Shown: one piece after another, positions 28,803-43,494 of the stretch
How the letters are laid out: each line of letters begins with the position of its first letter
How positions within the stretch are numbered: the first letter of the stretch is position 1
From: Candidatus Eiseniibacteriota bacterium
Lineage (GTDB): Bacteria > ARS69
DNA length: 64,000 nucleotides
Assembly (NCBI GenBank): GCA_052390515.1
Contig: JBQTGV010000072.1
Span: 7,172 to 71,171 of the forward strand
Reading direction: 5' to 3'
Program-made: the position numbers and the translations under genes
The notes under the pieces: generated by a model
Told to the model about the DNA's origin: nothing
Databases searched by the model: none
The model's input: the letters and a program-made list of their open reading frames with translations, nothing else

Positions 28803-30566
28803 CTAGATCGCGTACTCCTTCCACCGCCGGTCGACCTTGGCCACGATCTCCGGATCCATCACCAGCGGCTCGGGATAGCCCTGCTTGAACGTCGCGTCGA
28901 TGGCCATGCGGCCGCGGTGCACGGGCCAGGCGCCGTGCAGCTCCGACTGCTCGAAGAACACGTCGCGGGCGGGATCGAAGCGCGTGAAGATGCCCCACAT
29001 CAATTGAGTGCGGTCGTCGAGCGGCACGTCCGGGGAGACTGCCGCGACGATGCGGGGCAGTGCCGCCTGCGGGAGCGCGCGCATCGCCGCGGCCAGAGCC
29101 CCTCGCGGCGACTCCTCCACGTGAATTGCCAGCAGCGTGCGCCCGAACAGCGCCTGTCCCCGGATGCGCCGGTCGACGAGCGACAGGTCGGGAACGGCCG
29201 GCAGCTCCGCTGGCGTGGCTCGGGTCCGCGGCGTCGCGTCGACGATCATCTTGCTGCCGAGGTTCGGAGTGAAGCTGGTGAAGTCCAGCGTGTCGAACGG
29301 CACGCGCGGCAGCAGCAGGAAGTCCTCCTCCGGATCGAAGTTCCTGGCGATGGCCTCGAGAACCTCGTCGAGGTTCCGCGGATTCACCGTGCGACCCACC
29401 ATCACGACGACCTTGGTCAGCCCGAGCTGGCCCTGCCCCAGGAGCCCGAACGCCGTGCGCATCGCCTCCTTGGCGAACCGCTGCTCCACCGACGCGACCA
29501 GCAGGTGGTGGAACCCCGTCTCCTCGAACGCCCACACGTCGCGCACCTCGGGATGCGGCAGCCGGATGAGCGGCCCGATCAGTTCCTGCACGAGGTTGCC
29601 CATGAAGCCGTCCTCCTGCGGCGGCTTGCCGACGACGATCGCGGGGTAGATCGCGTCCTTCCGGCGAAAGACCTTGCGCGCGCGGAACACCGGGAAGGGC
29701 GCCGCCGCGGAGTAGTGGCCGAAGTGATCGCCGAAGGGCCCCTCGCGCCGGCGCTCGCCCGCGGCCACGCTGCCTTCGATGACGAACTCCGCGCCCCGCG
29801 GCACCGGTAGATCCACGGTGACGCCGCGGGAGAGCTCCACTCCCCTACCGCGGAGCAGCCCGACGAAGGCGGTCTCGGGCAGTCCCTCGGGGAGCGGCAT
29901 CATCGCGGCGAGCATGAGCAGAGGGTCCCCTCCCAGCGCCACCGCGACCGGCAGCGATTTGCGCTCCTCCTCCGCCTCGAAGTGGTGGTAGCCGCCGCCC
30001 TTCCCGATCTGGAAGTGCATTCCCGTCTCGGTCGAGTCGTAGACGTGCATGCGGTAGATGCCGACGTTCAGCGAGGCATCGCGCGGGCTGCGCGTGAAAA
30101 CCATCGGGAACGTGAGGAAGGGGCCGCCGTCACCCGGCCAGCAGGTGAGCGCCGGCAGCTGGGTCAGGTCGGGATCCTCCTCGACCTCGCGGACCGGGCC
30201 GCCGGAGGAGATTCGCGGCTTCATGCCGCGGAAGCGCATCAGGTCGGGCAGGTGCCTGAGCAGCAGGCCCGCGCTGGGCGGGTTCAGGTCCTTGGCCAGC
30301 TTCACCAGGGACTCGCCGATCTCAGCCGCCGGCCGGCCGAGCACCAGCTCGATGCGCCGGCGCGAGCCGAACAGGTTGATCGCCAGCGGGAAGGTGCTGC
30401 CTTCGACGCGCTCGAAGAGGAGAGCCGGGCCTTCGCCCCGGACGACGCGTTGCACGATCTCGGTGATCTCGAGCCGCGGGTCGACGGGGACTTTCACCCG
30501 GCGAAGCTCACCCGCCGCCTCGATGGCACGGAGGAATGCGCGAAGGTCGGTGATCGGGCTCGGCAA
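28803..30566 (-). CDS. ubiD: UbiD-family prFMN-dependent decarboxylase (candidate menaquinone/futalosine-pathway decarboxylase)
   Basis: 587 aa. Typical UbiD N-terminus MPSPITDLRAFLRAIEAAGELRRVKVPVDPRLEITEI and conserved core. Confidence 0.85.
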   Translation of the reverse strand: MPSPITDLRAFLRAIEAAGELRRVKVPVDPRLEITEIVQRVVRGEGPALLFERVEGSTFPLAINLFGSRRRIELVLGRPAAEIGESLVKLAKDLNPPSAGLLLRHLPDLMRFRGMKPRISSGGPVREVEEDPDLTQLPALTCWPGDGGPFLTFPMVFTRSPRDASLNVGIYRMHVYDSTETGMHFQIGKGGGYHHFEAEEERKSLPVAVALGGDPLLMLAAMMPLPEGLPETAFVGLLRGRGVELSRGVTVDLPVPRGAEFVIEGSVAAGERRREGPFGDHFGHYSAAAPFPVFRARKVFRRKDAIYPAIVVGKPPQEDGFMGNLVQELIGPLIRLPHPEVRDVWAFEETGFHHLLVASVEQRFAKEAMRTAFGLLGQGQLGLTKVVVMVGRTVNPRNLDEVLEAIARNFDPEEDFLLLPRVPFDTLDFTSFTPNLGSKMIVDATPRTRATPAELPAVPDLSLVDRRIRGQALFGRTLLAIHVEESPRGALAAAMRALPQAALPRIVAAVSPDVPLDDRTQLMWGIFTRFDPARDVFFEQSELHGAWPVHRGRMAIDATFKQGYPEPLVMDPEIVAKVDRRWKEYAI

Positions 30567-30612
30567 CGGGGGGCTCTCCGGACGACGCCAGTCGGGTGGT
30601 CGACGCTAGCAG

Positions 30613-30641
30613 CGGCCCCCCAGGCCGTCAACGAGGGGACT
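30613..30641 (-). promoter_or_regulatory. Putative promoter of UbiD-like gene: TTGACG-N17-TAGCGTCG
   Basis: On the minus strand: cgTTGACGgcctggggggccgctgcTAGCGTcg, ~47 nt upstream of the ATG. The extended -10 region ctgcTAGCGTcg is identical to the UbiX-like promoter at 36884-36913. Confidence 0.45.
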
Positions 30642-30707
30642 GAAACGGGAAGGCCGGCCTTCCGATGGACGAAGGGAGGTCCGAACCCCTTTCCCGGCGG
30701 CTACCCG

Positions 30708-32741
30708 ATGGCGACCCAGTTTCGCGGCTACACCATCCTCGAGACCCTCGGAATCGGCGGCATGGCCTCCGTGTTCCTCGGGGTCCAGGAGAACCTCAAG
30801 CGCCACGTGGCCATCAAGCTGCTGGACAAGCGCCTGGCCCTCTCCGAGGACTTCGTGCGGCGCTTCGAGCGCGAAGCGCGCGCCGCCTCCGAACTGAACC
30901 ACCGTAACATCATCACCATCCACGAGTTCGGCAACGAGGGCGGCGACTACTTCATCGTCATGGAGCACGTGAAGGGATCGGATCTGCAGGCCGTGCTCGA
31001 CCGCGTCACCCGCTTTCCGCCGGAGATCGCGCTGGTGATCCTCGAGGAAGTGGCCACCGGCCTCGCCGCCGCGCACGAGAAGGACATCGTGCATCGGGAC
31101 ATCAAGCCGGCGAACGTGCTGCTCTCCCACAACGGCGACGTGAAGATCACCGACTTCGGTCTGGCGCGGGACTACAGCCTGGATGCGAGCCGGCTCTTCG
31201 ACAGCCTGACTGTCGGCGGCACGGTGCTGGGTACGCCGTCGTACATGTCGCCGGAGCAGGCGTCGGGGCTGTCGCTCGATCACAAGACCGACACGTTCGC
31301 GCTGGGTGTGATGGCCTACGAGATGTTCACCGGGCAGAAGCCCTTCCCGGGCGAGACCTACTCGGCCATCCGCGAGGCGATCCTGGAAGGCGAGCCGCGT
31401 CCGCTCACGCTGCAGCGCCCGCTGGCCACCCCGCAGATCGAGGACATGGTCCGGCGGATGCTGGCGAAGGCGCCGGAGCACCGACCGGACATGCGCCAGC
31501 TCCTGCACATGGTCGAGGCCTGCATGGAGACGGTGGACCCCTCGGGGATGCTGCTGCGCCATCGCCGCCGCTTCCTCGAGAAGTTCGCCGCGGATCCTGA
31601 GAGTTTCTCCTCCCGGCTCGAGCAGGTCGTCGTGCAGAAGAGCCTCGGCCGCGGCCTCTACGCGAAGGCGCTGGGCCTGGAGCGGCTGGACGTCGCGCTG
31701 GAGCATCTGGAGTACGTGCAGCAGAAGGACCCGCAGAACAGCAAGGCGAAGCGCGCGATCGCCGAGATCGTCGACTACGGGAGCGGGACCACCCGGGACC
31801 GCCGATCGAAGGCACCGGCTCGGCCGGAGCGGACCCAGATCGATCGGGCGCCGCGGAAGCCGCGCGTGCGCGTGCCGGAGATCTCGCTCGGGATCGTGAT
31901 CCTCGCCGCGGCGTCCTTCGGCGTCGTCCGCTCCGGGCTGGTGGATCGACTCACCGCGCGAACCGAGCTGGCGGTAGCCGCTCCGACCACGCCCTCGGCG
32001 AGTCCGCCCCCCGCGGTGACGTCGGCCGCGACGACGGCGCTGCCGCCCGCACTCGCCCTTCCGTCCGATCCTCAGCCCGCGGGAACGCCGCCGGCCGATC
32101 TGCCGTCCGCCGAGCCCGCGCCTGCCCAGAAGCCGGCACCGGCCGTCGCGTCCCGGCAGGAGTCGGAGCCGGTTCGCGCCGTCGAGGATGGGGCGCCCGA
32201 GGTCGAGGCCCCGAAGCCTGCACCGCCCAAGGACAGCTGGGTGCGCGTGCGCACGGAACCGGCCGGGAACATCCTCCTGAACGGGAAGCTGCTGGAGTCC
32301 GGTTCCACCGGGCTCGTCTCGCGGGTCGCGCCCGGCGAGACCGTCACGCTGGAGGTGCGGCATCCGGAGCTCTTCGGCTCCAAGACCTGGACGCGGAAGG
32401 TCGCGCCCGGCGACACGCTCGATCTGGGGAAGTACGCCGTGAAGACGGGCACCCTTCGCGTGTCGACCCGCCCGCCGACTCCGGTCGAGGTGCTGATCGA
32501 CGGGCGGGAGACGCGCAAGGAGACCCCCCTGGCCCTGACCGTGACGAGCCGGCAGCAGGTCGTCTCCATCCAGGCACCGGGCTGGATCGTCGAGAAGGCG
32601 GTGGTGAGCGAGCGCAGCGGCGAGGGCACCGCGCGGGAGATCGTGCCCGAGGATCCCGCGCGATTCGCCGGCGTGCCGGTCGACGTCGGCGAGGGACAGG
32701 ACCTCAAGGTCGTCTTTCACCTGGCCAAGGCCGGGGGCTGA
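30708..32741 (+). CDS. Serine/threonine protein kinase with C-terminal PEGA domains
   Basis: The kinase domain starts at MATQFRGYTILETLGIGGMASV (ATG 30708), with HRDIKPANVLL, DFGLAR, SPEQ. One TM helix, an A/P-rich linker, then PEGA repeats (VRTEPAGNILLNGK…, VSTRPPTPVEVLIDGRE…). The upstream 242 aa of the track ORF are artefact. Confidence 0.85.
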   Translation: MATQFRGYTILETLGIGGMASVFLGVQENLKRHVAIKLLDKRLALSEDFVRRFEREARAASELNHRNIITIHEFGNEGGDYFIVMEHVKGSDLQAVLDRVTRFPPEIALVILEEVATGLAAAHEKDIVHRDIKPANVLLSHNGDVKITDFGLARDYSLDASRLFDSLTVGGTVLGTPSYMSPEQASGLSLDHKTDTFALGVMAYEMFTGQKPFPGETYSAIREAILEGEPRPLTLQRPLATPQIEDMVRRMLAKAPEHRPDMRQLLHMVEACMETVDPSGMLLRHRRRFLEKFAADPESFSSRLEQVVVQKSLGRGLYAKALGLERLDVALEHLEYVQQKDPQNSKAKRAIAEIVDYGSGTTRDRRSKAPARPERTQIDRAPRKPRVRVPEISLGIVILAAASFGVVRSGLVDRLTARTELAVAAPTTPSASPPPAVTSAATTALPPALALPSDPQPAGTPPADLPSAEPAPAQKPAPAVASRQESEPVRAVEDGAPEVEAPKPAPPKDSWVRVRTEPAGNILLNGKLLESGSTGLVSRVAPGETVTLEVRHPELFGSKTWTRKVAPGDTLDLGKYAVKTGTLRVSTRPPTPVEVLIDGRETRKETPLALTVTSRQQVVSIQAPGWIVEKAVVSERSGEGTAREIVPEDPARFAGVPVDVGEGQDLKVVFHLAKAGG

Positions 32742-32840
32742 GTCGGCCCGGAGATTGCCACTTTAGATCTCCGCAGGACCTTCCGAACACTTCCGGCAGA
32801 TGCTCGAACGACCCCGTCAGCCCGGAGACCCGGCGAGACC

Positions 32841-33443
32841 TTGCGAAGGAACTCCGTTCTTCTGATGTGTCACGTGCTCGCGGCCGCGGTGCTCCTCGCC
32901 GCTCCCGTGCACGCCGCCGACGCCGACCTCGCCACGGCGTGGGAGTACTTCTACGACGCCGACTTCGAGCTCGCGCTGGGCGAGGTCGACCGCTTCCTGG
33001 GCGCCGTCGTGCTGGATGCCCCGCGACTGCGCGAGGCGCACGCGCTCGCCGGGCAGTGTCACGCCCGGCTCGGCGACGAGGTCGCCGCGGTCGAGTCGTT
33101 CTGCAGCGCGCTCGCGGTGGACGCCGCGTGGTCGCCGGATCCGACGGTGTTCTCTCTCGAGGAGCTCGCGCTCTTCCGCCGCGCACACTCCGAGTGCCCG
33201 CAGGTCGCGTCACCCGAGCCGGTGACGCCGGACCCGATGCCCGGCGGCGTTCCGGACGAGGTCGCGGCGGCGGCGCTCGCAGGAAGCCCCTGGTACCACA
33301 AGAAGAGCTTCTGGATCGGCACCGGGGCCTTGCTGACGGCGCTCGTCATCGCCGGGAGCAGCTCCGACGACGGCGCACCGACCGGCGATCAGGTCCCCGG
33401 CTTCCCCGACCCGCCTGGGCCGGCGCCGGCGTGGACGCCATGA
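32841..33443 (+). CDS. Secreted/membrane hypothetical protein
   Basis: Signal peptide (MCHVLAAAVLLAAPVHA) and a C-terminal hydrophobic segment. ATGA overlap with the downstream large gene. Confidence 0.55.
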   Translation: MRRNSVLLMCHVLAAAVLLAAPVHAADADLATAWEYFYDADFELALGEVDRFLGAVVLDAPRLREAHALAGQCHARLGDEVAAVESFCSALAVDAAWSPDPTVFSLEELALFRRAHSECPQVASPEPVTPDPMPGGVPDEVAAAALAGSPWYHKKSFWIGTGALLTALVIAGSSSDDGAPTGDQVPGFPDPPGPAPAWTP

Positions 33444-36298
33444 CCGCGCGCCCCGTCCGCGTCGCGCTCTCGGTCCTGTCGGTGACGGCGGTGGTGCTCG
33501 CGCCGGCTCCGGGCCGCTGCGTGAACCTCTACGGATGGTCGATCAGCGAGAGCAACACGGATCCGTTCGTGAACTCCGGCTCGGGGTTCCTGGGGAGCCG
33601 GACGGTCTATCTGTGGTACGTGTGCAACTCCTCGGAGGGTCTCGCCGGGGCGGAGTTCAACCTCGCCGCGAGCGGCTTCTCTTTCGCGGGCTTCACGCCG
33701 ACGCCCGCGTTCACCGACGGCGGCTCCGGTGCGTCCCTTCGCCTCACCAGCAACGTGAGCTGCGCGACGGGCCCGATGCTCGCCGGCGCGATCCAGCTCT
33801 CCAGCCTGCTCGTCATCCCCGGGCAGATCTGCATCGTGCCGAACTCGGGCAGCGGCGAGAACGTCTCCTACGACTGCTCCTTCGGCCGGCACTGGCCGAA
33901 CCAGACGATCGGCTACTCCACCGGAGGCGCCATCAGCTGCGTCGAGCTGCTGTGCGATCCACCCGACGCGGATCTGGGTGTCATCAAGAGCGTGAACGAC
34001 AGCAAGCCGAAGGAGGGCAGTCCGGCCCAGTACACCATGCAGGTGACGAACGACGGCCCGCAGACGGTGTGCGACGCGCTCGTCACCGATACATGGCCGC
34101 TTGGCCTGGCCTACGACTCGTCCGCCGCCACCCACGGCTGGTACGACCCGACGTTCGGATCGTGGTCGATCGGCACGCTCGCCCCGGGCGACACGGCCAC
34201 GCTCTGGATCGACTTCCACCCGGAGCCCGGCAGCGCGAACCAGACGATCTGGAACGGCGCCGCCGTGTCCGCCACCGCGGACGACGCGAACAATGCGAAC
34301 AACGCCTCCTGGGTGTCCATCGACGTCGCTCCTCCGGGCACCGCGGATCTCGCCGTGGTCAAGACGGTGGACGATCCCGCGCCCGGCGAAGGCGTCGGCG
34401 CGCTCTACGCCTTGACGGTCGCGAACCAAGGTCCCGACGACGTCTTCGACGCCCTCGTCACCGACTGGATGCCGCTCGGCGTCGTCCACGACTCCTCTGC
34501 AGCGACGCACGGCTCGTACGACGACTTCACGGGGTCGTGGTCGATCGGATTTCTTGCCGCCGGTGATTCGGCGACGCTGTGGATCCACTTCCATCCGGGA
34601 ACGGGATCGGCGGGCCAGACGATCTGGAACACCGCGAACGTCTCCGCCACCGCGTCCGACCCGGACGCTTCCGACAACTCGTCGTCGGTCTCCATCGACG
34701 TCGGCCCGCCCGTGATCAGCGCCACGCTGCCGCAGGTCACGACGGGCGACGGGCTGGACGTGCTCGTTCCGGCCACGATCACGAACGACGTCTACGTGAG
34801 CGCCACGACGCTCCACTACCGGGAAGGCGGCAGCCCGGCCTTCTCGCAGCTTGGCATGACGCGCAGCGCGGAAGGCCAGTGGGAGGCGACGGTGCCCGCG
34901 AGCTCCGTCACCATCCGCGGCGTGCAGTACTTCATCGAGGTGACGCACACCTCGCCGAACGCGCCGGGACTCCGCGCGGTGTCCTACTTCCCGGAGACGA
35001 ACTACCGCAGCATGAACGTGATCGTCCCGTCGCAGTCCATCTCCCTGCCGCCGGCGTCCTACGCGCTGCTCGGCGTCCCGTTCCGCGCGGAGCGCGCCGG
35101 CGACCCTCTCGGCGTCTTCGACGAGCTCGCTCCCTACGACACCAAGCGTTGGCGCTACGGCGTGTGGAACGGCACCGGATACCTCGACGGCCCGGCCGCC
35201 GCCGGGGCGGTCACCCCGGGAAAGAGCTTCTGGATCTACGACAAGAACGGGGCGACCGTCGGAATCGGCGGTCTCTCCGCGGATCTCACCTCCGACCACT
35301 CCGTGGTGCTGCACGCCGGCTGGAACATGGTCGCGAGTCCCTTTGCGTTCGCCGTGCCGGCCGACCAGGTGGTGCGGGACCCCGGCGTGCCGCTGGACTT
35401 CGTGAGCTGGAACGGCTCGGGGTACGACCACTTCAACGCGACGATCGTCCCCGGCCGCGGCTATTGGGTGCTGAACACCACCGCCGCACCACGCACGGTG
35501 ACCTTCCCCGTCGGCGTACTGCCCACGGCGCGGATGCCTCTCGCCGGCGATCCCTGGCTGCCGTCGGGGGACGGCTGGGCTGTCGACGTGCACGCCGCGT
35601 CCGGCCGCGCGGCGGACCGCGTGAACCGCTTCGGCATGCGCGACGGCGCGACCGACTCGTTGGACGAGCTCGACCTGCCGGAGGCGCCCGCGCCGCCCGC
35701 GGACTACCTGGTCGTCGCGTTCCTGGACGGCTCCGGCGCGCTGCTGCAGGTGGATTACCGGAGCCGCCGCGACCAAGGCGCGGCGTGGACGATCGCGGTC
35801 GAGAGTGATGCGTCGCCGCACGTGGTCCGGCTCGACTTCGAGGGCGTCGACGCGGCGCCCGCGGAGTGGGAGGTCTTCGCGCTGATCGGCGAGGCGCGGC
35901 AGGACCTTCGCGCCGATCCTTCGCTCGAGACGTTGACCGGTTTCGGGGCGACGTCGCGCCGCATCCATGTCGTCGCCGGACCGCCGGCCTTCGTTCGCGC
36001 CTTCACCGTTCCGGCCGAGCCCATGCAGCTCGTGGTCGGGCCGAACCCGTTCCTCGCGCCGTCCTCGACGACGCTCTCGCTGCTCGTGCCGTCGCCCGGG
36101 CCGGCCAGCCTCGCCGTCTACGACGTCGCCGGGCGGACGGTGCGCGTGCTGCACCGCGGGCCGCTCGACGCGGGACTCCGCGCGTTCTCGTGGAACGGCC
36201 GCGACGAATCCGGCCGCGACGTCGCCGCGGGAGTGTACTTCGTGCGCGCGCAGTCGATGGCGGCGAGCGAGGTCAAGAAGATCCTCGTGCTTCGCTAG
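33440..36298 (+). CDS. Large secreted protein with tandem DUF11 ('conserved repeat domain') modules and C-terminal FlgD-Ig-like/CTD domain
   Basis: Start MTARPVRVALSVLSVTAVVLAPAPG (ATG 33440). Repeated DUF11-like units (VTDTWPLGLAYDSSAATHGWYDPTFGSWSIGTLAPGDTATLWIDF, VTDWMPLGVVHDSSAATHGSYDDFTGSWSIGFLAAGDSATLWIHF). C-terminus …VYDVAGRTVRVLHRGPLDAGLRAFSWNGRDESGRDVAAGVYFVRA. Confidence 0.8.
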   Translation: MTARPVRVALSVLSVTAVVLAPAPGRCVNLYGWSISESNTDPFVNSGSGFLGSRTVYLWYVCNSSEGLAGAEFNLAASGFSFAGFTPTPAFTDGGSGASLRLTSNVSCATGPMLAGAIQLSSLLVIPGQICIVPNSGSGENVSYDCSFGRHWPNQTIGYSTGGAISCVELLCDPPDADLGVIKSVNDSKPKEGSPAQYTMQVTNDGPQTVCDALVTDTWPLGLAYDSSAATHGWYDPTFGSWSIGTLAPGDTATLWIDFHPEPGSANQTIWNGAAVSATADDANNANNASWVSIDVAPPGTADLAVVKTVDDPAPGEGVGALYALTVANQGPDDVFDALVTDWMPLGVVHDSSAATHGSYDDFTGSWSIGFLAAGDSATLWIHFHPGTGSAGQTIWNTANVSATASDPDASDNSSSVSIDVGPPVISATLPQVTTGDGLDVLVPATITNDVYVSATTLHYREGGSPAFSQLGMTRSAEGQWEATVPASSVTIRGVQYFIEVTHTSPNAPGLRAVSYFPETNYRSMNVIVPSQSISLPPASYALLGVPFRAERAGDPLGVFDELAPYDTKRWRYGVWNGTGYLDGPAAAGAVTPGKSFWIYDKNGATVGIGGLSADLTSDHSVVLHAGWNMVASPFAFAVPADQVVRDPGVPLDFVSWNGSGYDHFNATIVPGRGYWVLNTTAAPRTVTFPVGVLPTARMPLAGDPWLPSGDGWAVDVHAASGRAADRVNRFGMRDGATDSLDELDLPEAPAPPADYLVVAFLDGSGALLQVDYRSRRDQGAAWTIAVESDASPHVVRLDFEGVDAAPAEWEVFALIGEARQDLRADPSLETLTGFGATSRRIHVVAGPPAFVRAFTVPAEPMQLVVGPNPFLAPSSTTLSLLVPSPGPASLAVYDVAGRTVRVLHRGPLDAGLRAFSWNGRDESGRDVAAGVYFVRAQSMAASEVKKILVLR

Positions 36299-36849: not shown

Positions 36850-36883
36850 GGGCGCTCTCCCTGGGCTCGGGCTGCGGCCGACG

Positions 36884-36913
36884 ACGCTAGCAGGGCCGTT
36901 CCGGAAGCGTCAA
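36884..36913 (-). promoter_or_regulatory. Putative promoter of UbiX-like gene: TTGACG-N18-TAGCGTCG
   Basis: On the minus strand: cgTTGACGcttccggaacggccctgcTAGCGTcgtcg, ~35 nt upstream of the ATG. Shares the TTGACG hexamer and the ctgcTAGCGTcg extended -10 with the UbiD-like promoter. Confidence 0.45.
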
Positions 36914-37580: not shown

Positions 37581-37625
37581 CCGCTGTGCCGTGAGAGGGC
37601 TCGCGGAAGAGTCCTCGGAAGGGCC

Positions 37626-37645
37626 GAAGGGCGGGAGCCATGCTC
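37626..37645. repeat. Direct repeat copy 1 (cgaagggcgggagccatgct), embedded in the terminator hairpin
   Basis: Identical 20-mer recurs at 38721-38740. An upstream ggaagag (37606-37612) also recurs at 38713-38719. Confidence 0.7.
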
Positions 37646-37663
37646 CCGCCCTTTCGCTTTTGC
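37627..37663 (+). terminator. Rho-independent terminator
   Basis: GAAGGGCGGGAGC-CATG-GCTCCCGCCCTT (12-bp stem, 4-nt loop) followed by TCGCTTTTGCG, 46 nt after the stop at 37578-37580. Confidence 0.8.
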
Positions 37664-37680
37664 GCTGCACGCTCCGTGCC

Positions 37681-38337: not shown

Positions 38338-38611
38338 CGATCAGCCCCTCCTCGCGCCACCGCCCCAGGAGATACTGCCAGAAAGCCTTCTGCCGGCCGA
38401 GATGCTTGGAGAGCGCGTCCCAGCTGGCCACCACCTCCTCGACCGTCGTGAACCTCCACACGTCACGGTCACGTGCCTCGCGGAGGATCTTGCCGAGAAG
38501 CCGCACACGCTCGGCTTCCGACGCGGTTTGCAGCCGCCGCCGCAGCTCCCCCACCGTCATGGGGTCGTCCCAGAGGAAGTAGGGAACCGCGTCTTCGCGG
38601 TCGAGATCCAT
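38318..38611 (-). CDS. Small protein upstream of/overlapping the AbiEii-like gene (putative cognate antitoxin/partner)
   Basis: ~98 aa from MLSMDLDREDAVPYFLWDDPMTVGELRRRL…; stop overlaps the toxin start by 20 nt. Start ambiguous between ATG at 38611 and 38602. Confidence 0.5.
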   Translation of the reverse strand: MDLDREDAVPYFLWDDPMTVGELRRRLQTASEAERVRLLGKILREARDRDVWRFTTVEEVVASWDALSKHLGRQKAFWQYLLGRWREEGLIVDRPTR

Positions 38612-38720
38612 GGAGAGCATCGTCGCCTGGCCTCGCATTCCGTTGTCCAGTTCACAGGGTAGCGCGCGACGCCCCCGGCGTCTCGAACGTTCCGTCCGTG
38701 TGCGAGCGTGCTGGAAGAGA

Positions 38721-38740
38721 CGAAGGGCGGGAGCCATGCT
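38721..38740. repeat. Direct repeat copy 2 (cgaagggcgggagccatgct)
   Basis: Exact copy of 37626-37645 but lacking the right hairpin arm, so no terminator can form here. Lies in the upstream region of the TA partner gene. Confidence 0.7.
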
Positions 38741-38753
38741 TCCTGCGCGCGAT

Positions 38754-39391
38754 CTACAGGCCCCGTTCGCGCACCGGCCGAGACACTTCCCGATAGGATA
38801 CGTCGATCGTCGCATCCGCGACCGAAAGGTAGCGGCTCACCGACGTGGACCGGATCCCCTCGCCGGCGTACGGCGGGACGGTGAGCAGGAATCCGTCGGC
38901 GAACATCCCCTCCTCGACCTGTGCCTTCACCAGACTGGTGAGATCGATGCCGATGGTGTGGCCGCCTTGCGAGAGATCCACGTCGACGCGACTGTAGAGA
39001 TCCCGGATCGACGTCCCCGCCGGGCCGCTGCCAGCTTGTCCAAGTCGCCCGCTCCGGCGGTCCAGGCAGCCGTGACCGGATGAACCTGGATCTGCTCCCG
39101 GCAGGGAGTCCGGCTGGGCGTCGACGTCGAAGGTCAGCGTGACCCCGAAGGATGAGCGCGCTCTCGGGCAGCCCGAGATCCGGAAGGCGGAAAGAGGATC
39201 CGTTCCTCTCCGCGGCCGTTGGTGATGGTGCTCACGTCCCGGATGCCGGAGGTGATCTGCGTGGCGGTCGAGGGTTGTGCCGCTGCGAGGAGGACCGCGC
39301 TGATCGAATCTCGAATCGCCGGAGGTGCCATGGGGAAGACGGGCGCCTCGCCGACGACTTGATCGTAGACCCTTGCGGGCGGCCAGTTCAA
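38754..39391 (-). pseudogene. Frameshifted 3' remnant of a larger gene (no intact N-terminus)
   Basis: Protein-like translation in two minus-strand frames: …AVLLAAAQPSTATQITSGIRDVSTITNGRGEERILF (39134..39391) and …DLYSRVDVDLSQGGHTIGIDLTSLVKAQVEEGMFADGFLLTVPPYAGEGIRSTSVSRYLSVADATIDVSY (to the stop at 38754). No start or 5' part; the upstream space is occupied by the + strand NTase gene. Confidence 0.4.
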
Positions 39392-39446
39392 GCGGGTCGC
39401 CCACGAACCGCTTGCCGGGACTGCATCCGTCCCTTAAACCGACCCC

Positions 39447-39941
39447 ATGGCCGGTCCCATCGAGGAAGCCCTGCGCGCCTTGAACGCTGCCGAGGTGCGT
39501 TACCTCGTCACCGGCGGGGTGGCCGTCGTGCTGCACGGCTACCTCCGGACCACGGCCGACCTCGACCTCTGGGTGCAGCTCGAGCCCGAGAACCTGCGGC
39601 ACGCCACACGCGCGCTCGGGGCCCTTGGCTACCGGCCGCGCGCCCCGGTGAAGCTCGACGAGTTCGCCGATCCCGCGAAGCGGCGCGAGTGGATCGAAGA
39701 GAAGGGCCTCGTGGTATTCTCGCTCTGGAATCCGAGCGCGCCGCTGGAGATCGACCTCTTTGTGAAGGACCCGTTCGACTTCGGGGCGGCGTGGGCACGG
39801 GCCGTCCGCGCGCCGCTCGAGACCACGGACGCCATGGTCGTCGCGCTGGAGGACCTCATCGCCATGAAGCAGCGCGTCGGCCGGCCGCGCGATCTCGAGG
39901 ACGTCGAGGCGCTGCGAGCGCTGCGCGATGCCTCAGGGTAG
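39447..39941 (+). CDS. Nucleotidyltransferase-fold protein (second NTase module)
   Basis: MAGPIEEALRALNAAEVRYLVTGGVAVVLHGYLRTTADLDLWV shows the same GG…G..R.T.DLDL Polβ-NTase signature as the AbiEii-like protein. Confidence 0.6.
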   Translation: MAGPIEEALRALNAAEVRYLVTGGVAVVLHGYLRTTADLDLWVQLEPENLRHATRALGALGYRPRAPVKLDEFADPAKRREWIEEKGLVVFSLWNPSAPLEIDLFVKDPFDFGAAWARAVRAPLETTDAMVVALEDLIAMKQRVGRPRDLEDVEALRALRDASG

Positions 39942-39950
39942 TGGCAAGCA

Positions 39951-40193
39951 ATGACCGAGCCGAGGATCGATGGCGTGGACGCGCCGTTCCCCGACACGAG
40001 CTGGGAGGCTCACCGGCGTCGCCGCGCCGTCCAGGGTCTGGATCTCACGCCCGCCGAGCGTCTCCGCTGGCTCGAGTCGACGATGGCGACGATGCGCGAG
40101 TGGCGGGGGCGTGCCCACGCACTACCCGACTCCGAACCCCACCAGCGCCAGCACGACGAACCCCAGCCACGCGTTGATCCGGAAGAACGCTAG
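39951..40193 (+). CDS. Small hypothetical ORF downstream of the NTase (possible partner); overlaps 3' end of ubiA-like gene
   Basis: 80 aa, no recognisable domain. Its 3' end overlaps the convergent UbiA-like gene by ~70 nt, so it may be spurious. Confidence 0.25.
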   Translation: MTEPRIDGVDAPFPDTSWEAHRRRRAVQGLDLTPAERLRWLESTMATMREWRGRAHALPDSEPHQRQHDEPQPRVDPEER

Positions 40194-40958
40194 ATCCACC
40201 TTGCGCGCCAGCAGGTGCTCGGCCAGGAGCAGCGCGCCGACCGCGCCGGCGAGCGGCACGACGAACGGCCCTTTCAGGTGCCGTACCGCCATCGCCAGAA
40301 GCAGGGCGAAGGCCACCGAGTGCACGCCAGCCGCGACGGCCAGCGCGCGCCGGCTCCCCAGCGCGGTCGGCAGCGAACGCAGCCCCGCCTTCCGGTCGAA
40401 GTCCTCGTCGAGCGTCGCGTAGATGACGTCGAACCCCGCGACCCACAGCCAGGTGAACCCGACGAGCAGATGCACGGCACCGAGCGGCAGCACCCGCCCG
40501 GTCACCGCCGCATACGCCGCCAGTGGCCCGAAGGCGAGCGCTGCCCCAACCCCAAAGTGCGCGAGCGGCGTCCATCGCTTCAGGAACGGATACAGGGCGA
40601 AGAGCGCGAGTGGCACCGGCGAGAGGCGAAGGCAGATCGGCGGCAGGTTCGCGACGCCGAGATAGAAGAGCGCGGTCCCCGCCGCGGCCACGGCCCACGC
40701 CACCCCGAGGCTCATCCGGCCGGCCGGCAGCTCCCGCGCGGCGGTCCGCGGATTCCGCGCGTCGATCCGCCGGTCGATGATGCGGTTCAGCGCCATGGCA
40801 AGCGTCCGAGCCCCCGTCCCGGCGACGAGGATCCAGAGCAGGGGCTTCGCGTCCGGCCAGCCTCCCGCGCCGAGCATGGCTCCGGCGAGCAGCAACGGCA
40901 GCGAGAACAGCGTGTGCTCGAACTTGACGAACTCGAGCAGCGTGCGGACCCGGATCAC
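40122..40958 (-). CDS. ubiA: UbiA-family polyprenyltransferase (candidate menaquinone prenyltransferase)
   Basis: Polytopic, with UbiA motifs (…NRIIDRRIDARNPRTAARELP… …VAGFDVIYATLDEDFDRKAGLRSL). No in-frame ATG precedes the conserved VIRVRTLLEFVKFEH, so a GTG start at 40956-40958 is inferred. Confidence 0.7.
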   Translation of the reverse strand: MIRVRTLLEFVKFEHTLFSLPLLLAGAMLGAGGWPDAKPLLWILVAGTGARTLAMALNRIIDRRIDARNPRTAARELPAGRMSLGVAWAVAAAGTALFYLGVANLPPICLRLSPVPLALFALYPFLKRWTPLAHFGVGAALAFGPLAAYAAVTGRVLPLGAVHLLVGFTWLWVAGFDVIYATLDEDFDRKAGLRSLPTALGSRRALAVAAGVHSVAFALLLAMAVRHLKGPFVVPLAGAVGALLLAEHLLARKVDLAFFRINAWLGFVVLALVGFGVG

Positions 40959-40965
40959 CGCACGC

Positions 40966-43494
40966 TCATCCGTCGAGCAGCGGCACGGCGAGGTGATCCT
41001 TGGCGACGAACAAGCTGCCCTCGGTGGTCCCGCCCGGGGCGGCCTCCGCGAGCACCTTGCCCAGCGCCGCGCATGAACCGCCGCACGCCAGCGCGGTGAC
41101 GAATGCGCCGGTGATCCTCGCCACGTCCTCCGCGGACTCGTGCGCGAACTCGAGCCGGAAGTGCCGGACTCCCGCCGCACGCCAGCGGCCCAGGTGCCGG
41201 CTCGCCTCCTGCGCCTGCGCGCCGAACACCGTGTTGCGGCAGCCCACGTCCGCCATCACCGGGTGCGCGCGCCCGTTCGTGTCCCGCAGCAGGACGCGAT
41301 GGCGCTCGCAGGGCTTGCCGCAGTCGCGGAAGCTCGTGCCCGTGGAGAGGAACCGGCAGAACACGCAGTGTTCGGTGTGGAATACGGGCAGGTGATGGTA
41401 GGCGACGACCTCGATCCGCTCCGCGCCGACGGAGCGCGCCAGCGCGGCGACTTGCGCCGCGTTCAGGTCGTGCGCCGGAGTGATCCGTCGCAGCCCGAGC
41501 GCGAGCAGCGTCTCCGCCGACACTGCGTTCGCCGCGTTCAGGCTGAAGTCGCCGGTGAGCGGCGGCGGCTCCTCCTGAGAGAGCGGGCCTTGGGAGAGCG
41601 CGTGCAGCAGACCGATCGAGCGCACCAGGATCTCGCAGTCGAGCCGCGCCAGGAACGTGACGATGCGCTCCTCGGCGGGCTTCAGGATCCGGGGGCTGGC
41701 CACGCGCGCGGTGACGCCCGCAGCCCGCACGCGCTCGACCGAGGGGCGAAGCCCATAGAGGTCCAGGTAGTCCAGGGTGATGCTGGAAGGAGCGGCTTGC
41801 AGCGCGGCCTCCAGCTGCTCCGGGGTGCGCACCAGCAAGTGGATCTCGGGCGCCGCCGCCCACTCGGCCGATGCCGCCGACGCGGCCAATGCTGCATCCC
41901 GCCCCGCCCTCACCGCAGTCAGCGCCGCCGTCGCCTCCGCGACCTCACGGGCCGGCACCGCGCCCTGCCGCTCCTGTAACGCCACGACCGCCGCGCGCCG
42001 CAGGTCGTTCAGCCACGACACCGGCGCGAAGGCACTGCCCGTCGTCTCCAGCTTCACTTCCACCAGTTCGTAGGGCGAACCTCCGAGGCGCCCGAGCTGC
42101 GCGGTGAGCAACGACTCGTCGAGCGGCCTCTTCGCCGCCGTCTCGAGCGGCAGCGGCGAGACGACCTCGACGCGGATCTCGGGCGAAGACTCGAGGCTCC
42201 ACTCCAGCACCAGAGGCTCGCCGGCGCGCGCCGTCGCGTGCGCGCGGACCGGCTGCCGCCGCACCGGGGCGGCCGGCCGGGTGAGCTCGCCGGCCACGCG
42301 GTCGATCTCGGGATCGTGCGTCCGCCACAGGAGATCGCCGGCGGCCATCCGGGCGAAGTCCACCGCGCCGTTCGCGAAGAGCAGCTCGACGGTGCCCCCC
42401 GCGGCCTTCCGCACCGACCAGACGCGACCACCTTCCTCGCGTTCCTCGGGGCTGCGCCGGTGCGCGGCGTCGAACACGATGCCGTCGCCGGCCTCGAGGG
42501 GCGCCGTCCCGTTCGCCTCCGACGGAGCGATGGTCACGCGGTCCGCGCCCACGCGCGTCACACGCCCCATCAGCACGCCCCGGTGCCGCGGCGATCGCCC
42601 CCGCACCACCGTCTGATGATTCACGCCGGTGACGAAGAACGGCCCGGACCCGCGCGAGTACACCTGCTCCAGGCGAAGCGCCTCGAGCGGATCGAGCGCC
42701 ACCGGCCTCCCCGCGCAGACCGCGTCCACGGCGCGCCGGTACGCCCGCGTCGTCAACGCGACATAGTTCTCGTCCTTGTAGCGCCCCTCGATCTTGAGCG
42801 CGTCGAGCCCGGCCCGCACGATCTCCGGAACCTGCGCCACCGTGGAAAGATCACCGGGCGAGAGCAGGTACCGGGCATCGCCCAGCGGCTTCGCCTTTCC
42901 GTCCACGAGCAGCTCGTAGGGCAGCCGGCACGCCTGCGCGCACTGCCCGCGGTTCGCGCTGCGCCCGCCCCAGGCCTCCGACGACAGACACTGCCCGGAG
43001 TAGGACACGCACAACGCGCCGTGCACGAACATCTCCAGCTCGCAATCGGTGGCGGCGCGGACCATGCGGATCTCTTCCAGAGAGAGCTCGCGGGCCAGGA
43101 TGACGCGCGTCACGCCGAGGGACTGCGCCAGCCGAACGCCCTCCGCGCTGGTGAAGGTCAGCTGCGTGCTGGCGTGCACCGGCAGCTCCGGTGCGACGCG
43201 GCGCGCCACCCGCACCGCACCCACGTCCTGCACGATGACCGCATCCGCGCCGGCCGCAGCGATGGCGCCGACGGCGCGCGCCGCTTCCTCCAGCTCGTGG
43301 TCGAAGACCAGCGTGTTGAAGGCGACGTAGCCCTTCACGCCGCGGCGGTGCAGCGTGCCGATCACGTCGGATAGCTCGGCCAGGGCGAAGCCCACCTTGG
43401 CCCGCGCCGAGAAATGCCGGAGCCCGAAGTAGACCGCGTCCGCGCCGGCCTCGACGGCGGCGGCGAGCTCCGGCCAGCCTCCCGCCGGGCTCAT
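40966..43494 (-). CDS. Peptidase U32-family protein, long form with C-terminal extension (DUF3656-like)
   Basis: Conserved U32 N-terminus MSPAGGWPELAAAVEAGADAVYFGL (ATG 43492-43494, GGAG 5 nt upstream). Cys-rich U32 core (HGALCVSYSGQCL…CAQACRLPY) and C-terminal 4-Cys cluster. 8 nt upstream of the UbiA-like gene. Confidence 0.8.
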   Translation of the reverse strand: MSPAGGWPELAAAVEAGADAVYFGLRHFSARAKVGFALAELSDVIGTLHRRGVKGYVAFNTLVFDHELEEAARAVGAIAAAGADAVIVQDVGAVRVARRVAPELPVHASTQLTFTSAEGVRLAQSLGVTRVILARELSLEEIRMVRAATDCELEMFVHGALCVSYSGQCLSSEAWGGRSANRGQCAQACRLPYELLVDGKAKPLGDARYLLSPGDLSTVAQVPEIVRAGLDALKIEGRYKDENYVALTTRAYRRAVDAVCAGRPVALDPLEALRLEQVYSRGSGPFFVTGVNHQTVVRGRSPRHRGVLMGRVTRVGADRVTIAPSEANGTAPLEAGDGIVFDAAHRRSPEEREEGGRVWSVRKAAGGTVELLFANGAVDFARMAAGDLLWRTHDPEIDRVAGELTRPAAPVRRQPVRAHATARAGEPLVLEWSLESSPEIRVEVVSPLPLETAAKRPLDESLLTAQLGRLGGSPYELVEVKLETTGSAFAPVSWLNDLRRAAVVALQERQGAVPAREVAEATAALTAVRAGRDAALAASAASAEWAAAPEIHLLVRTPEQLEAALQAAPSSITLDYLDLYGLRPSVERVRAAGVTARVASPRILKPAEERIVTFLARLDCEILVRSIGLLHALSQGPLSQEEPPPLTGDFSLNAANAVSAETLLALGLRRITPAHDLNAAQVAALARSVGAERIEVVAYHHLPVFHTEHCVFCRFLSTGTSFRDCGKPCERHRVLLRDTNGRAHPVMADVGCRNTVFGAQAQEASRHLGRWRAAGVRHFRLEFAHESAEDVARITGAFVTALACGGSCAALGKVLAEAAPGGTTEGSLFVAKDHLAVPLLDG

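Follow-up and report, generated by a model that had tools for sequence, protein, structure and literature searches.

The window, 64,000 nucleotides of a contig from an Eiseniibacteriota MAG, carries four minus-strand genes of interest, which were identified with Pfam and NCBIfam profiles. The ubiD-like gene (28803..30566) encodes an MqnL-type prFMN-dependent decarboxylase of 587 aa with Pfam domains UbiD_N, UbiD and UbiD_C. Its product scored 489.6 bits on TIGR03701 ('menaquinone biosynthesis decarboxylase') over residues 11-439, 6 bits under the equivalog cut-off of 495.9. The protein extends ~140 aa beyond the C-terminal end of the 433-position model, and this extension is conserved, with homologues from 80 loci aligning up to residue 585-587. 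The ubiX-like gene (36295..36849) encodes an MqnM-type flavin prenyltransferase of 184 aa (Pfam Flavoprotein, with TIGR00421 above cut-off), and the ubiA-like gene (40122..40958) an MqnP-type polyprenyltransferase of 278 aa (Pfam UbiA; TIGR01475, 252.6 bits against a cut-off of 180.8), which did not reach the narrow MqnP models of NCBIfam. The fourth gene, for a long-form U32 protein of the RlhA family, lies at 40966..43530.

The early futalosine-pathway genes form another minus-strand block (11839..14913) in the same window: mqnC (11839-12966; TIGR03699, 453.9 vs 428.1), a VitK2_biosynth gene of MqnA/D type (12966-13793; PF02621, 163.6 bits) and mqnE (13684-14913; TIGR03700, 443.7 vs 434.55), mqnC and mqnE both exceeding their equivalog cut-offs. 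The earlier note's reading of ubiD, ubiX and ubiA as late menaquinone genes was thus borne out, the three being a late futalosine-pathway set. Its description of them as dispersed is correct for distance, but ubiA, ubiX and ubiD are collinear and all on the minus strand.

Gene order in related genomes

Related genomes have a compact ubiA-orfY-ubiX-ubiD cluster beside mqnE/A/C, in which ubiX and ubiD are joined as a single operon. Among 80 metagenome loci with a long UbiD, UbiX was found on the same strand in 61 and directly upstream of UbiD (<300 nt) in 49; UbiA was also present in 49. The arrangement ubiA|orfY|ubiX-ubiD was seen in L167/L168, L169/L170, L171 and L085. The neighbors in L167 match those in the window (ABC transporter, mqnE/A/C, DUF423, epimerase), and its mqnC, VitK2_biosynth gene and mqnE come after ubiD within 2 kb. 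In the window, orfY (37236..37580, plus strand) is a small conserved gene divergent from ubiX, whose uncertain start may lie as far up as 36939. It has no Pfam match; in L167, L169 and L085, the ORF on the opposite strand that separates ubiX from ubiA is 54-65% identical to it (tblastx).

Between ubiX and ubiD, the window carries a 5.7 kb block of three plus-strand genes opposite to the quinone genes (30708..36298), comprising a Ser/Thr kinase gene (30708-32741; Pfam), a gene for a 200-aa protein (32841-33443) and a DUF11/FlgD_ig surface protein gene (33431-36298; Pfam). This block is not found between ubiX and ubiD in L085, L167, L169 or L171, and 49 of 61 other loci likewise lack it there; a relative with 92% UbiD identity also shows kinase|ubiD. 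Between orfY and ubiA lies a variable insertion of 2.5 kb (37581..40121), of which ~1.8 kb has poor coding potential as judged by low GC3 coding scores. It includes a plus-strand DUF6036/NTP_transf_5 nucleotidyltransferase gene (39447-39941; Pfam DUF6036, 28 bits vs a cut-off of 23.6), homologues of which adjoin ubiA in L166 and lie ~9 kb off in L165. Because both kinase|ubiD and U32-ubiA recur on independent contigs, misassembly was ruled out.

Paired putative promoter sequences of ubiD and ubiX

The earlier note had reported that the UbiD-like and UbiX-like genes are preceded by an identical extended -10 region and the same promoter layout, and this was confirmed. TTGACG-N17/18-TAGCGT matched exactly twice in the 64 kb, both times on the minus strand, against 0.00 expected from 100 shuffles, and the longer form TTGACG-N17/18-cTGCTAGCGTCG occurred exactly twice in the window, 35-37 nt upstream of these two genes and likewise against an expectation of 0.00. 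Identity between the two sites covers the blocks cgTTGACG and cTGCTAGCGTCG. The putative ubiX promoter, P, occupies 36884..36913, as had been given (-35 TTGACG, 36913-36908; spacer 18 nt; extended -10 TGC, 36892-36890; -10 TAGCGT, 36889-36884). The putative ubiD promoter, P′, had been placed at 30613-30641, 10 nt off the actual site at 30603..30631 (-35 TTGACG, 30631-30626; spacer 17 nt; extended -10 TGC, 30611-30609; -10 TAGCGT, 30608-30603). At each site the -10 ends 34-36 nt ahead of the start codon, and at both genes a GGAGAG Shine-Dalgarno sequence follows 21 nt beyond TAGCGTCG; that of ubiD lies at 30579-30574, ahead of a TTG start at 30566.

The -35, TGn and TAG(C/G)nT elements are conserved at the same position upstream of ubiX in L167 (gcgTTGACGc..cgcTGCTAGCGTCc), L169 (gcgTTGACGc..GGGGCCGCTGGTAGCGTCc), L171 (TTGACC..cTGGTAGCCT) and L085 (..cgcTGCTAGGTT). 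When TTGAC-N15-17-TGnTAGnnT was searched in 2.39 Mb of fetched DNA, 7 of the 10 occurrences were ubiX/ubiD promoters. P′ aligned with the ubiX promoter region of L169 over 49 columns with 40 identities (z=8.8; Smith-Waterman score 45 vs 20.8±2.7 for shuffles, 0/300 of which reached the score), whereas unrelated promoter regions used as controls gave z≤2.7. The spacer of P′ matched that of L169 at 11/17 positions, compared with 8/17 for one unrelated promoter in a base-by-base reading, G-runs being common to the spacers of GC-rich promoters. P′ and the window's own P are alike in the core elements only (z=2.8), which does not set the pair apart from the best unrelated controls, and the hypothesis that P′ arose by duplication of the ubiX promoter therefore draws mainly on one relative, L169.

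In a genome of 70% GC, both upstream sequences could simply be good fits to the generic housekeeping consensus, with their additional identity a coincidence. The core is indeed the generic sigma-70-type housekeeping promoter of this genome: TTGACN-N16-19-TAnnnT matched 10 times in the window, and 9/10 matches were intergenic although intergenic DNA makes up only 11% of it. TTGACG is present in 4/6 perfect TTGAC sites, an unrelated pair (48620 and 53183) likewise has TTGACG...TACGCTt in common, and outside the core P and P′ agree at chance level (5/21 in the 5′ UTR). However, P and P′ share ~10 more positions (cg before the -35, its G6, cTGC, GCG within the -10 and CG after it) that recur together in none of the other eight generic-core sites, all of which lack TGn-TAGCGT. 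The same block is kept at the orthologous ubiX promoters of four other genomes, its second copy stands precisely at the gene formerly served by that promoter, and the L169 alignment takes in the spacer. We consider coincidence unlikely. The earlier note had raised the possibility that the motif is a generic housekeeping consensus; this holds for the -35/-10 core, but among the window promoters only those of ubiD and ubiX have the extended -10 block.

A dedicated regulon is less probable still. Under this explanation, an alternative sigma factor or a repressor/activator would read TTGACG...TGCTAGCGTCG, for example for oxygen or redox control of the late-step genes. The block is conserved past the positions that primary sigma normally reads, and the neighborhood includes several Ser/Thr kinases as well as a gene for an ECF sigma factor (24516-25157). 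The elements themselves, however, are textbook primary-sigma (-35 TTGACN, 17/18 nt, TGn, TAnnnT) rather than an ECF-type pair, and the motif is absent at the other pathway genes of the window, ubiA (behind U32) and mqnE/A/C. In compact relatives ubiA is preceded by a different sequence, TTGCGG-N17-CAT(C/T)CT. The only transcription-factor-type inverted or direct repeat is a 6-bp GCTAGC, and idiosyncratic flanks are also kept at the promoter of a phosphodiesterase gene in the window, L166 and L167. Thus, nothing points to a dedicated regulator of these promoters. The likeness between them exceeds chance and supports coupled expression of ubiD and ubiX. The co-regulation of decarboxylase and cofactor synthase that had been proposed earlier may accordingly be retained as a legacy of one operon rather than as a special regulon, because relatives hold ubiX and ubiD as one operon behind the same promoter.

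The U32 gene and its position beside ubiA

The earlier note described an 842-aa U32 protein. The long form was confirmed, but the start is probably the ATG at 43530 rather than 43494, giving 854 aa: the residues KPEI-MSPAG upstream of 43494 fit the homologue consensus KPExMSPAG, and the NCBI model P0001 also has 854 aa. Pfam resolves the protein into an N-terminal U32 domain, DUF3656 and another U32 domain; the first U32 domain carries a 4-Cys motif and the second a further Cys cluster, and the cysteines are invariant in alignment A1. This combination of U32, DUF3656, second U32 domain and two cysteine clusters defines the RlhA family (PMC5727448). E. coli RlhA was the best E. coli match (33% identical over 510 aa), and the N-domain is 39.5% identical to RlhA, above TrhP or UbiU. 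The NCBIfam models for UbiU and UbiV scored far below cut-off (170 vs 440 and 68 vs 275). Architecture and 33-40% identity indicate a long-form RlhA-type Fe-S enzyme, and its most likely job would be O2-independent hydroxylation of C2501 in 23S rRNA, with rRNA as the presumed substrate.

The gap between U32 and ubiA is 7 nt (40959-40965), not 8 as previously stated, and no promoter-like site lies between the two genes. An extended -10 promoter-like element, TGGTAGAAT, was read upstream of U32 (43559..43567, minus strand); it is kept in L165 and L166 and is likely the promoter of a U32-ubiA transcript, from which both genes would be co-transcribed. The adjacency is limited to relatives with at least 83% identity (L165, L166 and the P0002 contig). 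It was seen at 0/77 informative U32 loci from Chloroflexota, Acidobacteriota, Gemmatimonadota, Planctomycetota, Deinococcota and Cyanobacteria (orthologues 54-68% identical), nor was it seen in L081 or in the next-closest genomes L167 and L169, both of which have ubiA directly next to the ABC transporter; in the L167 assembly, U32 is on a separate contig, L001. None of the 80 ubiD loci has a U32 gene within 6 kb, and the long U32 has no conserved neighbor whatsoever across the loci compared. Conserved synteny of U32 with quinone genes is therefore lacking, and this recently arrived gene most likely came to lie beside ubiA by chance and not long ago.

The suggestion that the U32-UbiA pairing hints at quinone hydroxylation was not supported by these comparisons. 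That the U32 protein is an O2-independent, prephenate-dependent hydroxylase of quinone or prenylated naphthoate working with the co-transcribed UbiA-like enzyme is the least probable explanation of all: the 7-nt gap without an intervening promoter implies a single transcript, the adjacency recurs in three independent contigs of close relatives, UbiU/UbiV set a precedent for hydroxylation of quinone precursors by U32 proteins (PMC6747719, PMC10990095) and the two-domain protein resembles a fused UbiU-like and UbiV-like pair, but only very close relatives share the adjacency, the UbiU/UbiV scores are low, U32 plus DUF3656 is the mark of RlhA (PMC5727448) and the late futalosine pathway has been proposed without a hydroxylation step (PMC4746308).

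Proposed history of the locus

We favor, with a probability of about 0.75, a stretched ancestral futalosine locus with a split ubiX-ubiD operon and a duplicated promoter. The ancestral order would have been ABC transporter (divergent) | ubiA/mqnP | orfY (opposite strand) | ubiX/mqnM-ubiD/mqnL operon | ... mqnE-mqnA/D-mqnC. In the line leading to the Eiseniibacteriota MAG, ubiA, ubiX and ubiD would have kept their order and strand while three insertions pulled them apart: the RlhA-family U32 gene between the ABC transporter and ubiA, ~2.5 kb including the nucleotidyltransferase gene between ubiA and orfY, and the 5.7 kb opposite-strand block of kinase, 200-aa protein and DUF11 surface protein genes between ubiX and ubiD. 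ubiX would retain the ancestral operon promoter (near-consensus primary-sigma, extended -10, TTGACG, 17/18 nt, TGC-TAGCGT), and the detached ubiD would have acquired a second, homologous copy with a similar 5′ UTR and Shine-Dalgarno sequence. With this second copy, prFMN synthase and prFMN-dependent decarboxylase would still be expressed in parallel, so that their co-expression would be inherited from the operon. ubiA would have lost its own upstream region and be transcribed by read-through from U32 across the 7-nt gap. Overall, the biology of the locus is nothing unusual, but it tells a neat evolutionary story.

Comparison with known systems

The closest counterpart is the Streptomyces-type set SCO4490 (UbiD-like, MqnL), SCO4491 (UbiA-like, MqnP) and SCO4492 (UbiX-like, MqnM), predicted by Ravcheev and Thiele in 2016 (PMC4746308). 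The enzymology of these steps is predicted rather than demonstrated, and the proposed late steps are prenylation, decarboxylation and methylation (PMC4746308). Like this set, the window has the same three families plus mqnC, mqnE and a VitK2_biosynth gene, and most relatives hold the three families as one same-strand cluster; unlike it, the window's cluster is broken by three insertions. The window also departs from the set modelled by NCBIfam for Streptomyces-type late futalosine genes (TIGR03701, NF041584) in its 587-aa UbiD, 6 bits under cut-off, and in not meeting the narrow MqnP models.

UbiU-UbiV is an O2-independent ubiquinone hydroxylase pair (Pelosi 2019, PMC6747719; PMC10990095), and neither partner has DUF3656 (PMC5727448). 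The window U32 belongs to the same family, has 4Fe-4S-type Cys motifs, has two U32 domains as the heterodimer does, but in one chain, and lies beside a quinone gene within its own clade. It differs in falling far below both NCBIfam cut-offs and in its non-conserved synteny with quinone genes; neither a UbiT partner nor ubiquinone genes were seen in the window. E. coli RlhA (YdcP) is the 23S rRNA 5-hydroxycytidine C2501 synthase, and RlhA1/RlhA2 long forms exist, e.g. D. radiodurans DR2130 (Kimura 2017, PMC5727448). RlhA was the best match of the window U32 among the four E. coli paralogues, and both have N-terminal CX6CX15CX3C cysteines followed by DUF3656 and a C-terminal Cys cluster. Like the long forms, the window U32 has a second C-terminal U32 motif. 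Unlike E. coli RlhA, it has 854 rather than 653 aa, a full second U32 domain in place of a short Cys-rich tail, and predicted co-transcription with ubiA in its clade.

In high-GC bacteria, primary-sigma (sigma-70/sigma-A) promoters occur with an extended -10 (TGn) and a -10 reading TAnnnT. TAGCGT fits only 3/6 positions of the standard sigma-70 TATAAT, and a standard promoter scan therefore misses the ubiD and ubiX sites. The flanking bases of the ubiX promoters are more conserved across orthologues than sigma contacts alone require. In all other respects listed here, P and P′ resemble extended -10 primary-sigma promoters: a -35 TTGACG, a spacer of 17/18 nt, TGC at -15 to -13, T, A and T at -12, -11 and -7, and a 5′ UTR of ~30 nt with a Shine-Dalgarno sequence.

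Quinone genes of the window and their identity

Pfam and NCBIfam searches confirmed the four genes named by the earlier note, all of them on the minus strand. They encode a UbiD-family decarboxylase (28803-30566; 587 aa; Pfam and NCBIfam, best family TIGR03701), a UbiX flavin prenyltransferase (36295-36849; Pfam and NCBIfam), a UbiA-like polyprenyltransferase (40122-40958; Pfam and NCBIfam, with a score that satisfies the generic UbiA-like model TIGR01475) and a long U32 protein (40966-43530, with a likely ATG at 43530; Pfam), in DNA of 70% GC. TIGR03701, the 'menaquinone biosynthesis decarboxylase' (SCO4490 equivalog), was the top-scoring family for the UbiD protein and its model was covered over the full length, at 489.6 bits against a cut-off of 495.9. 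The UbiA protein stayed below all NCBIfam MqnP cut-offs, which belong to narrow 'exception' models (MqnP_DT, 213.7 versus 430; MqnP_SCO4491, 177.7 versus 420; MqnP_Cj_Hp, 162.8 versus 375). Exact-protein look-ups with the window UbiX and U32 returned no record. The UbiD protein carries a C-terminal extension of ~140 aa (residues ~450-587) beyond the 433-position TIGR03701 model, which was kept in 80/80 fetched homologues; in two metagenome loci (L106, 8587-8796; L107, 3378-3596) an extra stand-alone copy of residues ~513-585 lies slightly downstream of ubiD.

An early futalosine cluster occupies 11839-14913 on the same strand, where mqnC (11839-12966) and mqnE (13684-14913) exceed their equivalog cut-offs and enclose a VitK2_biosynth (MqnA/D-type) gene; a DUF423 gene and an epimerase gene adjoin it. 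The late-step genes co-occur with mqnC, mqnE and the VitK2_biosynth gene, and they are linked likewise in L167, a metagenome locus of a relative. The menaquinone (futalosine) context of these genes is solid. In L167 no more than 2 kb separates the mqnE/A/C cluster from ubiD. The window has ~13 kb of other genes between the two, among them response regulator, B12-radical SAM, PMT_2, ICMT, S41 peptidase, ECF sigma and TPR-kinase genes; the ECF sigma gene directly precedes the gene of a 936-aa Ser/Thr kinase with many TPR repeats, and the pair spans 24516-27964 on the plus strand. For the UbiA-, UbiD- and UbiX-like genes of futalosine organisms, the designations MqnP, MqnL and MqnM rest on a prediction by comparative genomics, and the prenylation and decarboxylation of 1,4-dihydroxy-6-naphthoate by the late-step enzymes are likewise predicted only (PMC4746308).

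A promoter block shared by ubiD and ubiX

The promoter block that the earlier note had described upstream of both ubiD and ubiX is real. TTGACG-N17/18-TAGCGT matched exactly twice in the 64 kb (0.00 expected), both times on the minus strand: at 36884-36913 before ubiX, where it had been placed, and at 30603-30631 before ubiD, where the earlier position was 10 nt off. The two sites are identical in the stretches cgTTGACG and cTGCTAGCGTCG, and at each of them a GGAGAG Shine-Dalgarno sequence stands 21 nt after TAGCGTCG, with the start codon 5-7 nt further. The -35 element TTGACG matches TTGACA at 5/6 positions, the spacers are 17 nt (ubiD) and 18 nt (ubiX), and both extended -10 elements read TGC-TAGCGT, with TGC at -15 to -13 and with T-12, A-11 and T-7 present. 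Together with leaders of ~30 nt that carry a strong Shine-Dalgarno sequence, these features are most likely those of primary-sigma promoters with an extended -10. The 11-mer TGCTAGCGTCG was unenriched when up to 2 mismatches were allowed (28 matches versus 34 expected); only the exact, positioned composite is informative. An Rfam search of the whole window at gathering thresholds gave no match, which leaves the 5' UTRs without a recognised riboswitch or leader. The shared block was also considered as a palindromic operator; this was rejected, the palindrome being limited to the 6-bp GCTAGC.

The standard TATAAT-based sigma-70 consensus recovered no promoters in a scan of 27-46 kb, since TAGCGT shares just 3/6 positions with TATAAT; a scan of the window for TTGAC (at least 4/5)-N16-19-TAnnnT took its place. 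TAnnnT-type -10 elements are familiar from high-GC bacteria. This generic core had 10 matches, 9 of which were intergenic though intergenic DNA makes up 11% of the window, and 7 of which sat 18-124 nt upstream of a called gene. Its perfect form occurred 6 times against 0.17 expected, and four of the six read TTGACG. An unrelated pair of promoters (48620-48649 and 53183-53211, both plus strand) also has TTGACG...TACGCTt in common. These counts and the unrelated pair identify the -35/-10 core as the housekeeping consensus of the organism. The shared motif is therefore this consensus as far as its core goes, but not in the extended -10 block: the other eight sites in the window have no TGn before the -10, no TAGCGT and no flanking c...CG.

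Insertions probably split an ancestral ubiA-ubiX-ubiD cluster

We fetched 80 metagenome loci that encode the same long UbiD and searched them with the window proteins. The ubiX gene was on the same strand as ubiD in 61 of the 80, and most of the others were cut by contig ends; in 49 it lay directly upstream of ubiD (<300 nt, often overlapping), and ubiA lay just upstream again in 49. These counts indicate that the ancestral state was a same-strand ubiA-ubiX-ubiD cluster. In L167 and L168 (UbiA 73% identical), a divergent ABC transporter gene is followed by ubiA, by a small ORF on the other strand (orfY) and by ubiX overlapping ubiD; further along L167 come mqnE, the VitK2_biosynth gene, mqnC, DUF423 and, after other genes, the epimerase. 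The order in L167 is the window gene order minus the extra DNA. On one flank the window and L167 have ABC transporter, thioredoxin-like, S49, phosphodiesterase, sulfatase and M42 genes in common, and on the other the DUF423 and epimerase genes. The core of ubiA, orfY and ubiX-ubiD is repeated in the relatives L169 and L170 (UbiD 78% identical), L171 (77%) and L085 (71%), and tblastx identified the window ORF at 37236-37580 as the orfY homologue.

The window genes ubiA, ubiX and ubiD have kept the ancestral order and orientation, and three pieces of DNA separate them. A 5.7-kb block on the opposite strand between ubiX and ubiD (30708-36298) encodes a Ser/Thr kinase, a 200-aa protein and a DUF11/FlgD_ig surface protein; ~2.5 kb between orfY and ubiA (37581-40121) includes a DUF6036 nucleotidyltransferase gene; and the U32 gene stands between the ABC transporter gene and ubiA. 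The kinase-ubiD junction recurs on an independent metagenome contig of a relative with 92% UbiD identity, and the U32-ubiA junction recurs on independent metagenome contigs as well, so neither is an assembly artefact. Base composition did not mark the inserted blocks as foreign. The kinase gene that heads the ubiX-ubiD insertion (30708-32741, plus strand) is the second Ser/Thr kinase gene of the region, and kinase genes also flank the U32 gene in locus L081. Among the other lineages, ubiX and ubiD are 0.3-3.6 kb apart in 8/61 (L090, L093, L100 and five more within L085-L164), which indicates that operon fission has been repeated.

The DUF6036/NTP_transf_5 nucleotidyltransferase gene, possibly toxin-antitoxin-like, comes with a small adjacent ORF in the window (39447-39941, plus strand) and in the close relatives L166 (11005-11475) and L165 (13432-13938), where it accompanies the variable DNA beside ubiA. 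At the same place L165 has further inserted genes (a CHAT protease and a Big_5/FG-GAP protein), which suggests an insertion hot spot beside ubiA. The ~1.9 kb at 37581-39446 has poor coding potential (GC3 0.79-0.84 versus ~0.91 in neighbouring genes), with just short minus-strand ORF fragments in differing frames, and may be a decayed gene; a promoter-like site at 39362-39391 (minus strand) has no called gene behind it. A tblastx comparison of this segment against all fetched loci gave low-complexity noise alone and no homologue. It contains a 31-nt direct repeat, 90% identical (37617-37647 and 38713-38743), each copy of which holds the hairpin GGGCGGGAGC-CAT-GCTCCCGCCC. The first copy lies just after orfY and is followed by TTTCGCTTTTG; it looks like an intrinsic terminator, repeated 1.1 kb away.

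The detached ubiD carries a probable copy of the operon promoter

In compact genomes ubiX heads a ubiX-ubiD operon, and the same promoter elements were found upstream of it while the remaining intergenic DNA has diverged. TGn-TAG(C/G)nT was present at four orthologous ubiX promoters: gcgTTGACGc-..-cgcTGCTAGCGTCc in L167 (spacer 18 nt), gcgTTGACGc-..-GGGGCCGCTGGTAGCGTCc in L169 (17 nt), TTGACC-..-cTGGTAGCCT in L171 (17 nt) and gcgTTGACGc-..-cgcTGCTAGGTT in L085 (18 nt). The composite TTGAC-N15-17-TGnTAGnnT occurred 10 times in 2.39 Mb of fetched DNA, and 7 of the 10 were ubiX or ubiD promoters. The recurrence at the relatives' ubiX genes and this count mark the block as characteristic of the promoter of the ancestral ubiX-ubiD operon, and the promoter sequences identify the block in front of the detached ubiD of the window as a putative second copy.

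To the 141-nt intergenic region between the kinase gene and ubiD we aligned the orfY-ubiX region of L169; 40 of 49 aligned columns were identical, and the aligned stretch covered the spacer (GGGGCCGC) as well as a CGTTTC(C)AG element upstream. Its score was 45, versus 20.8±2.7 for shuffled sequences (0/300 reached 45), and nine unrelated promoter-bearing regions used as controls gave z<=2.7. This similarity argues for common descent of the ubiD promoter and the ubiX promoter rather than convergence. With the ubiX promoter of the window itself, the ubiD promoter shows less similarity (z=2.8) than with that of L169. The two window promoters have only functional elements in common, with UTRs identical at 5/21 positions, so that any duplication would be old, the cores having been held by selection. 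A recent duplication of the ubiX promoter within the window was rejected because spacer and UTR identity are at chance level; any duplication was probably old, or is better mirrored by the L169-type ancestral sequence.

Expression of ubiX and ubiD

Enzymes of the UbiD family, as is established for the family, depend on prenylated FMN, which is the product of UbiX. After fission of the operon, a copy of the same promoter before the detached ubiD would keep UbiX and UbiD co-expressed, and equivalent promoters before the two genes would reproduce the former stoichiometric co-expression. The earlier note had proposed co-regulation of the two genes. That proposal stands insofar as the promoters imply coupled expression, which most likely goes back to the split operon and its consensus-type promoter; a special regulon is unsupported.

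No evidence of a dedicated regulator was seen. Besides the generic nature of the promoter elements, ubiA and mqnE/A/C are without the motif, and the sequence upstream of ubiA differs in compact relatives. Idiosyncratic flanks are equally kept at other orthologous promoters, one example being the phosphodiesterase promoter of the window, L166 and L167. The promoter of that gene was kept with its flanks (ggcTTGACG..CCGATACGCTtctc) in L166 (2329-2358, minus strand) and partly in L167 (4803-4832, minus strand), and orthologous promoters of the lineage seem to keep such flanks in general.

The U32-ubiA pairing is young and lineage-specific

The gap between the U32 gene and ubiA is 7 nt and has no promoter-like site, so the two are probably read as one transcript, for which the conserved TGGTAGAAT element at 43559-43567 would be the promoter. 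The pairing was also present, with gaps of 4-7 nt, in L165, L166 and the contig of the homologue P0002 (U32 83% identical to the window protein in P0002; UbiA 85-86% in L166 and L165), and it was limited to relatives with at least 83% identity. It was absent from L167, where ubiA abuts the ABC transporter gene and where a 68%-identical U32 protein of the same assembly is encoded on another contig (L001), and from L169 and L081. In 80 species-level genome loci, 77 of them with at least 1 kb downstream, the U32 gene had no gene for UbiA, UbiD or UbiX nearby, and no U32 gene was within 6 kb of ubiD in the 80 ubiD loci. The adjacency, which the earlier note had offered as a link, is accordingly not conserved beyond the immediate clade (80 U32 and 80 ubiD loci), an outcome that the note itself had listed as a refutation. 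It is phylogenetically shallow, young and lineage-specific, so that a quinone role of U32 proteins should not be argued from it by guilt by association.

No conserved partner gene of the long U32 was found in its 80 loci, which fits a housekeeping modification enzyme that stands alone; the best cluster was histidine kinases (12 loci). A NUDIX-like gene 3 nt downstream of the long U32 was the one immediate neighbour found to recur, in 10 loci (L018, 12466-13164, and nine others), all restricted to Bryobacterales.

The long U32 protein

The U32 gene is present as described, and its product is probably longer than the 842 aa first assigned (start at 43494). The likely start is the ATG at 43530, giving 854 aa, because the 12 extra residues include KPEI, which fits the homologue consensus KPExMSPAG, and because the NCBI model has 854 aa. 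The protein consists of a U32 domain, DUF3656 and a second U32 stretch, with PF01136 (298 bits) and PF12392 (78 bits) in one chain. Two cysteine clusters are invariant in 16 homologues (C162/C169/C185/C189 and C710/C713/C725/C729, 842-aa numbering); the N-terminal cysteines align with HGALCV..GQC..C..C of RlhA, in which the U32-motif cysteines of the Escherichia coli protein are C169 and C176. Homologues ~54-70% identical were found in Chloroflexota, Acidobacteriota, Gemmatimonadota, Planctomycetota, Deinococcota and one cyanobacterium.

Among the E. coli paralogues, RlhA scored highest over the full length (233 bits, versus 157 for TrhP, 128 for UbiU and 33 for UbiV), and the two proteins are 33% identical over 510 aa that span U32 and DUF3656. 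N-domain identities were 39.5% to RlhA, 33.6% to TrhP and 30.3% to UbiU. The NCBIfam UbiU and UbiV models scored 170 (cut-off 440) and 67.7 (cut-off 275), and the TrhP model was also far below its cut-off; a PDB sequence search found nothing at E<=0.001. The combination of peptidase U32 motif and DUF3656 is stated to be unique to the RlhA subfamily, ~half of RlhA1 proteins have a second C-terminal U32 motif (RlhA2a/b), C-terminal cysteines are essential, and Deinococcus radiodurans has both ho5C2501 and a homologue with the second motif (PMC5727448). In Pelosi et al. (PMC6747719), too, RlhA1 and RlhA2 are treated as two domains within a single protein. From this family resemblance we infer an rRNA substrate.

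The quinone-hydroxylation role that the earlier note had suggested for the U32 protein found no support: UbiU/UbiV cut-offs were not reached, conserved quinone synteny was absent, and the late steps proposed for the futalosine pathway (prenylation, decarboxylation and methylation) contain no hydroxylation (PMC4746308). Recruitment of the two-domain U32 in this clade, where it would share a transcript with the MqnP-type prenyltransferase, for O2-free modification of a naphthoquinone or prenylated precursor is very improbable; the protein would then act as a single-chain UbiU-UbiV analogue and yield a hydroxylated or otherwise altered menaquinone.

Comparison with known systems

Two tempting over-readings of this locus are cleared up by the analysis: the 'co-regulation motif' is best read as the inherited promoter of an operon split by insertion, and the U32-UbiA adjacency gives no warrant for a quinone role. 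The promoter history would be a neat natural case of a cofactor synthase (UbiX) and its client decarboxylase (UbiD) staying co-expressed after their operon was broken up. The long-form RlhA-like protein, ~65% identical across at least six phyla, is a worthwhile target independent of this locus.

All parts of the locus are of known kinds: late futalosine genes, a member of the RlhA family and a sigma-70 promoter with an extended -10. Only the operon fission documented here, together with its homologous promoter copy, is mildly novel. In contrast to the quinone hydroxylase UbiU/UbiV, from which it differs in falling short of the equivalog cut-offs and in having no conserved association with quinone genes, the window U32 agrees at every sequence-level point with the RlhA family, the 23S rRNA ho5C2501 synthases.
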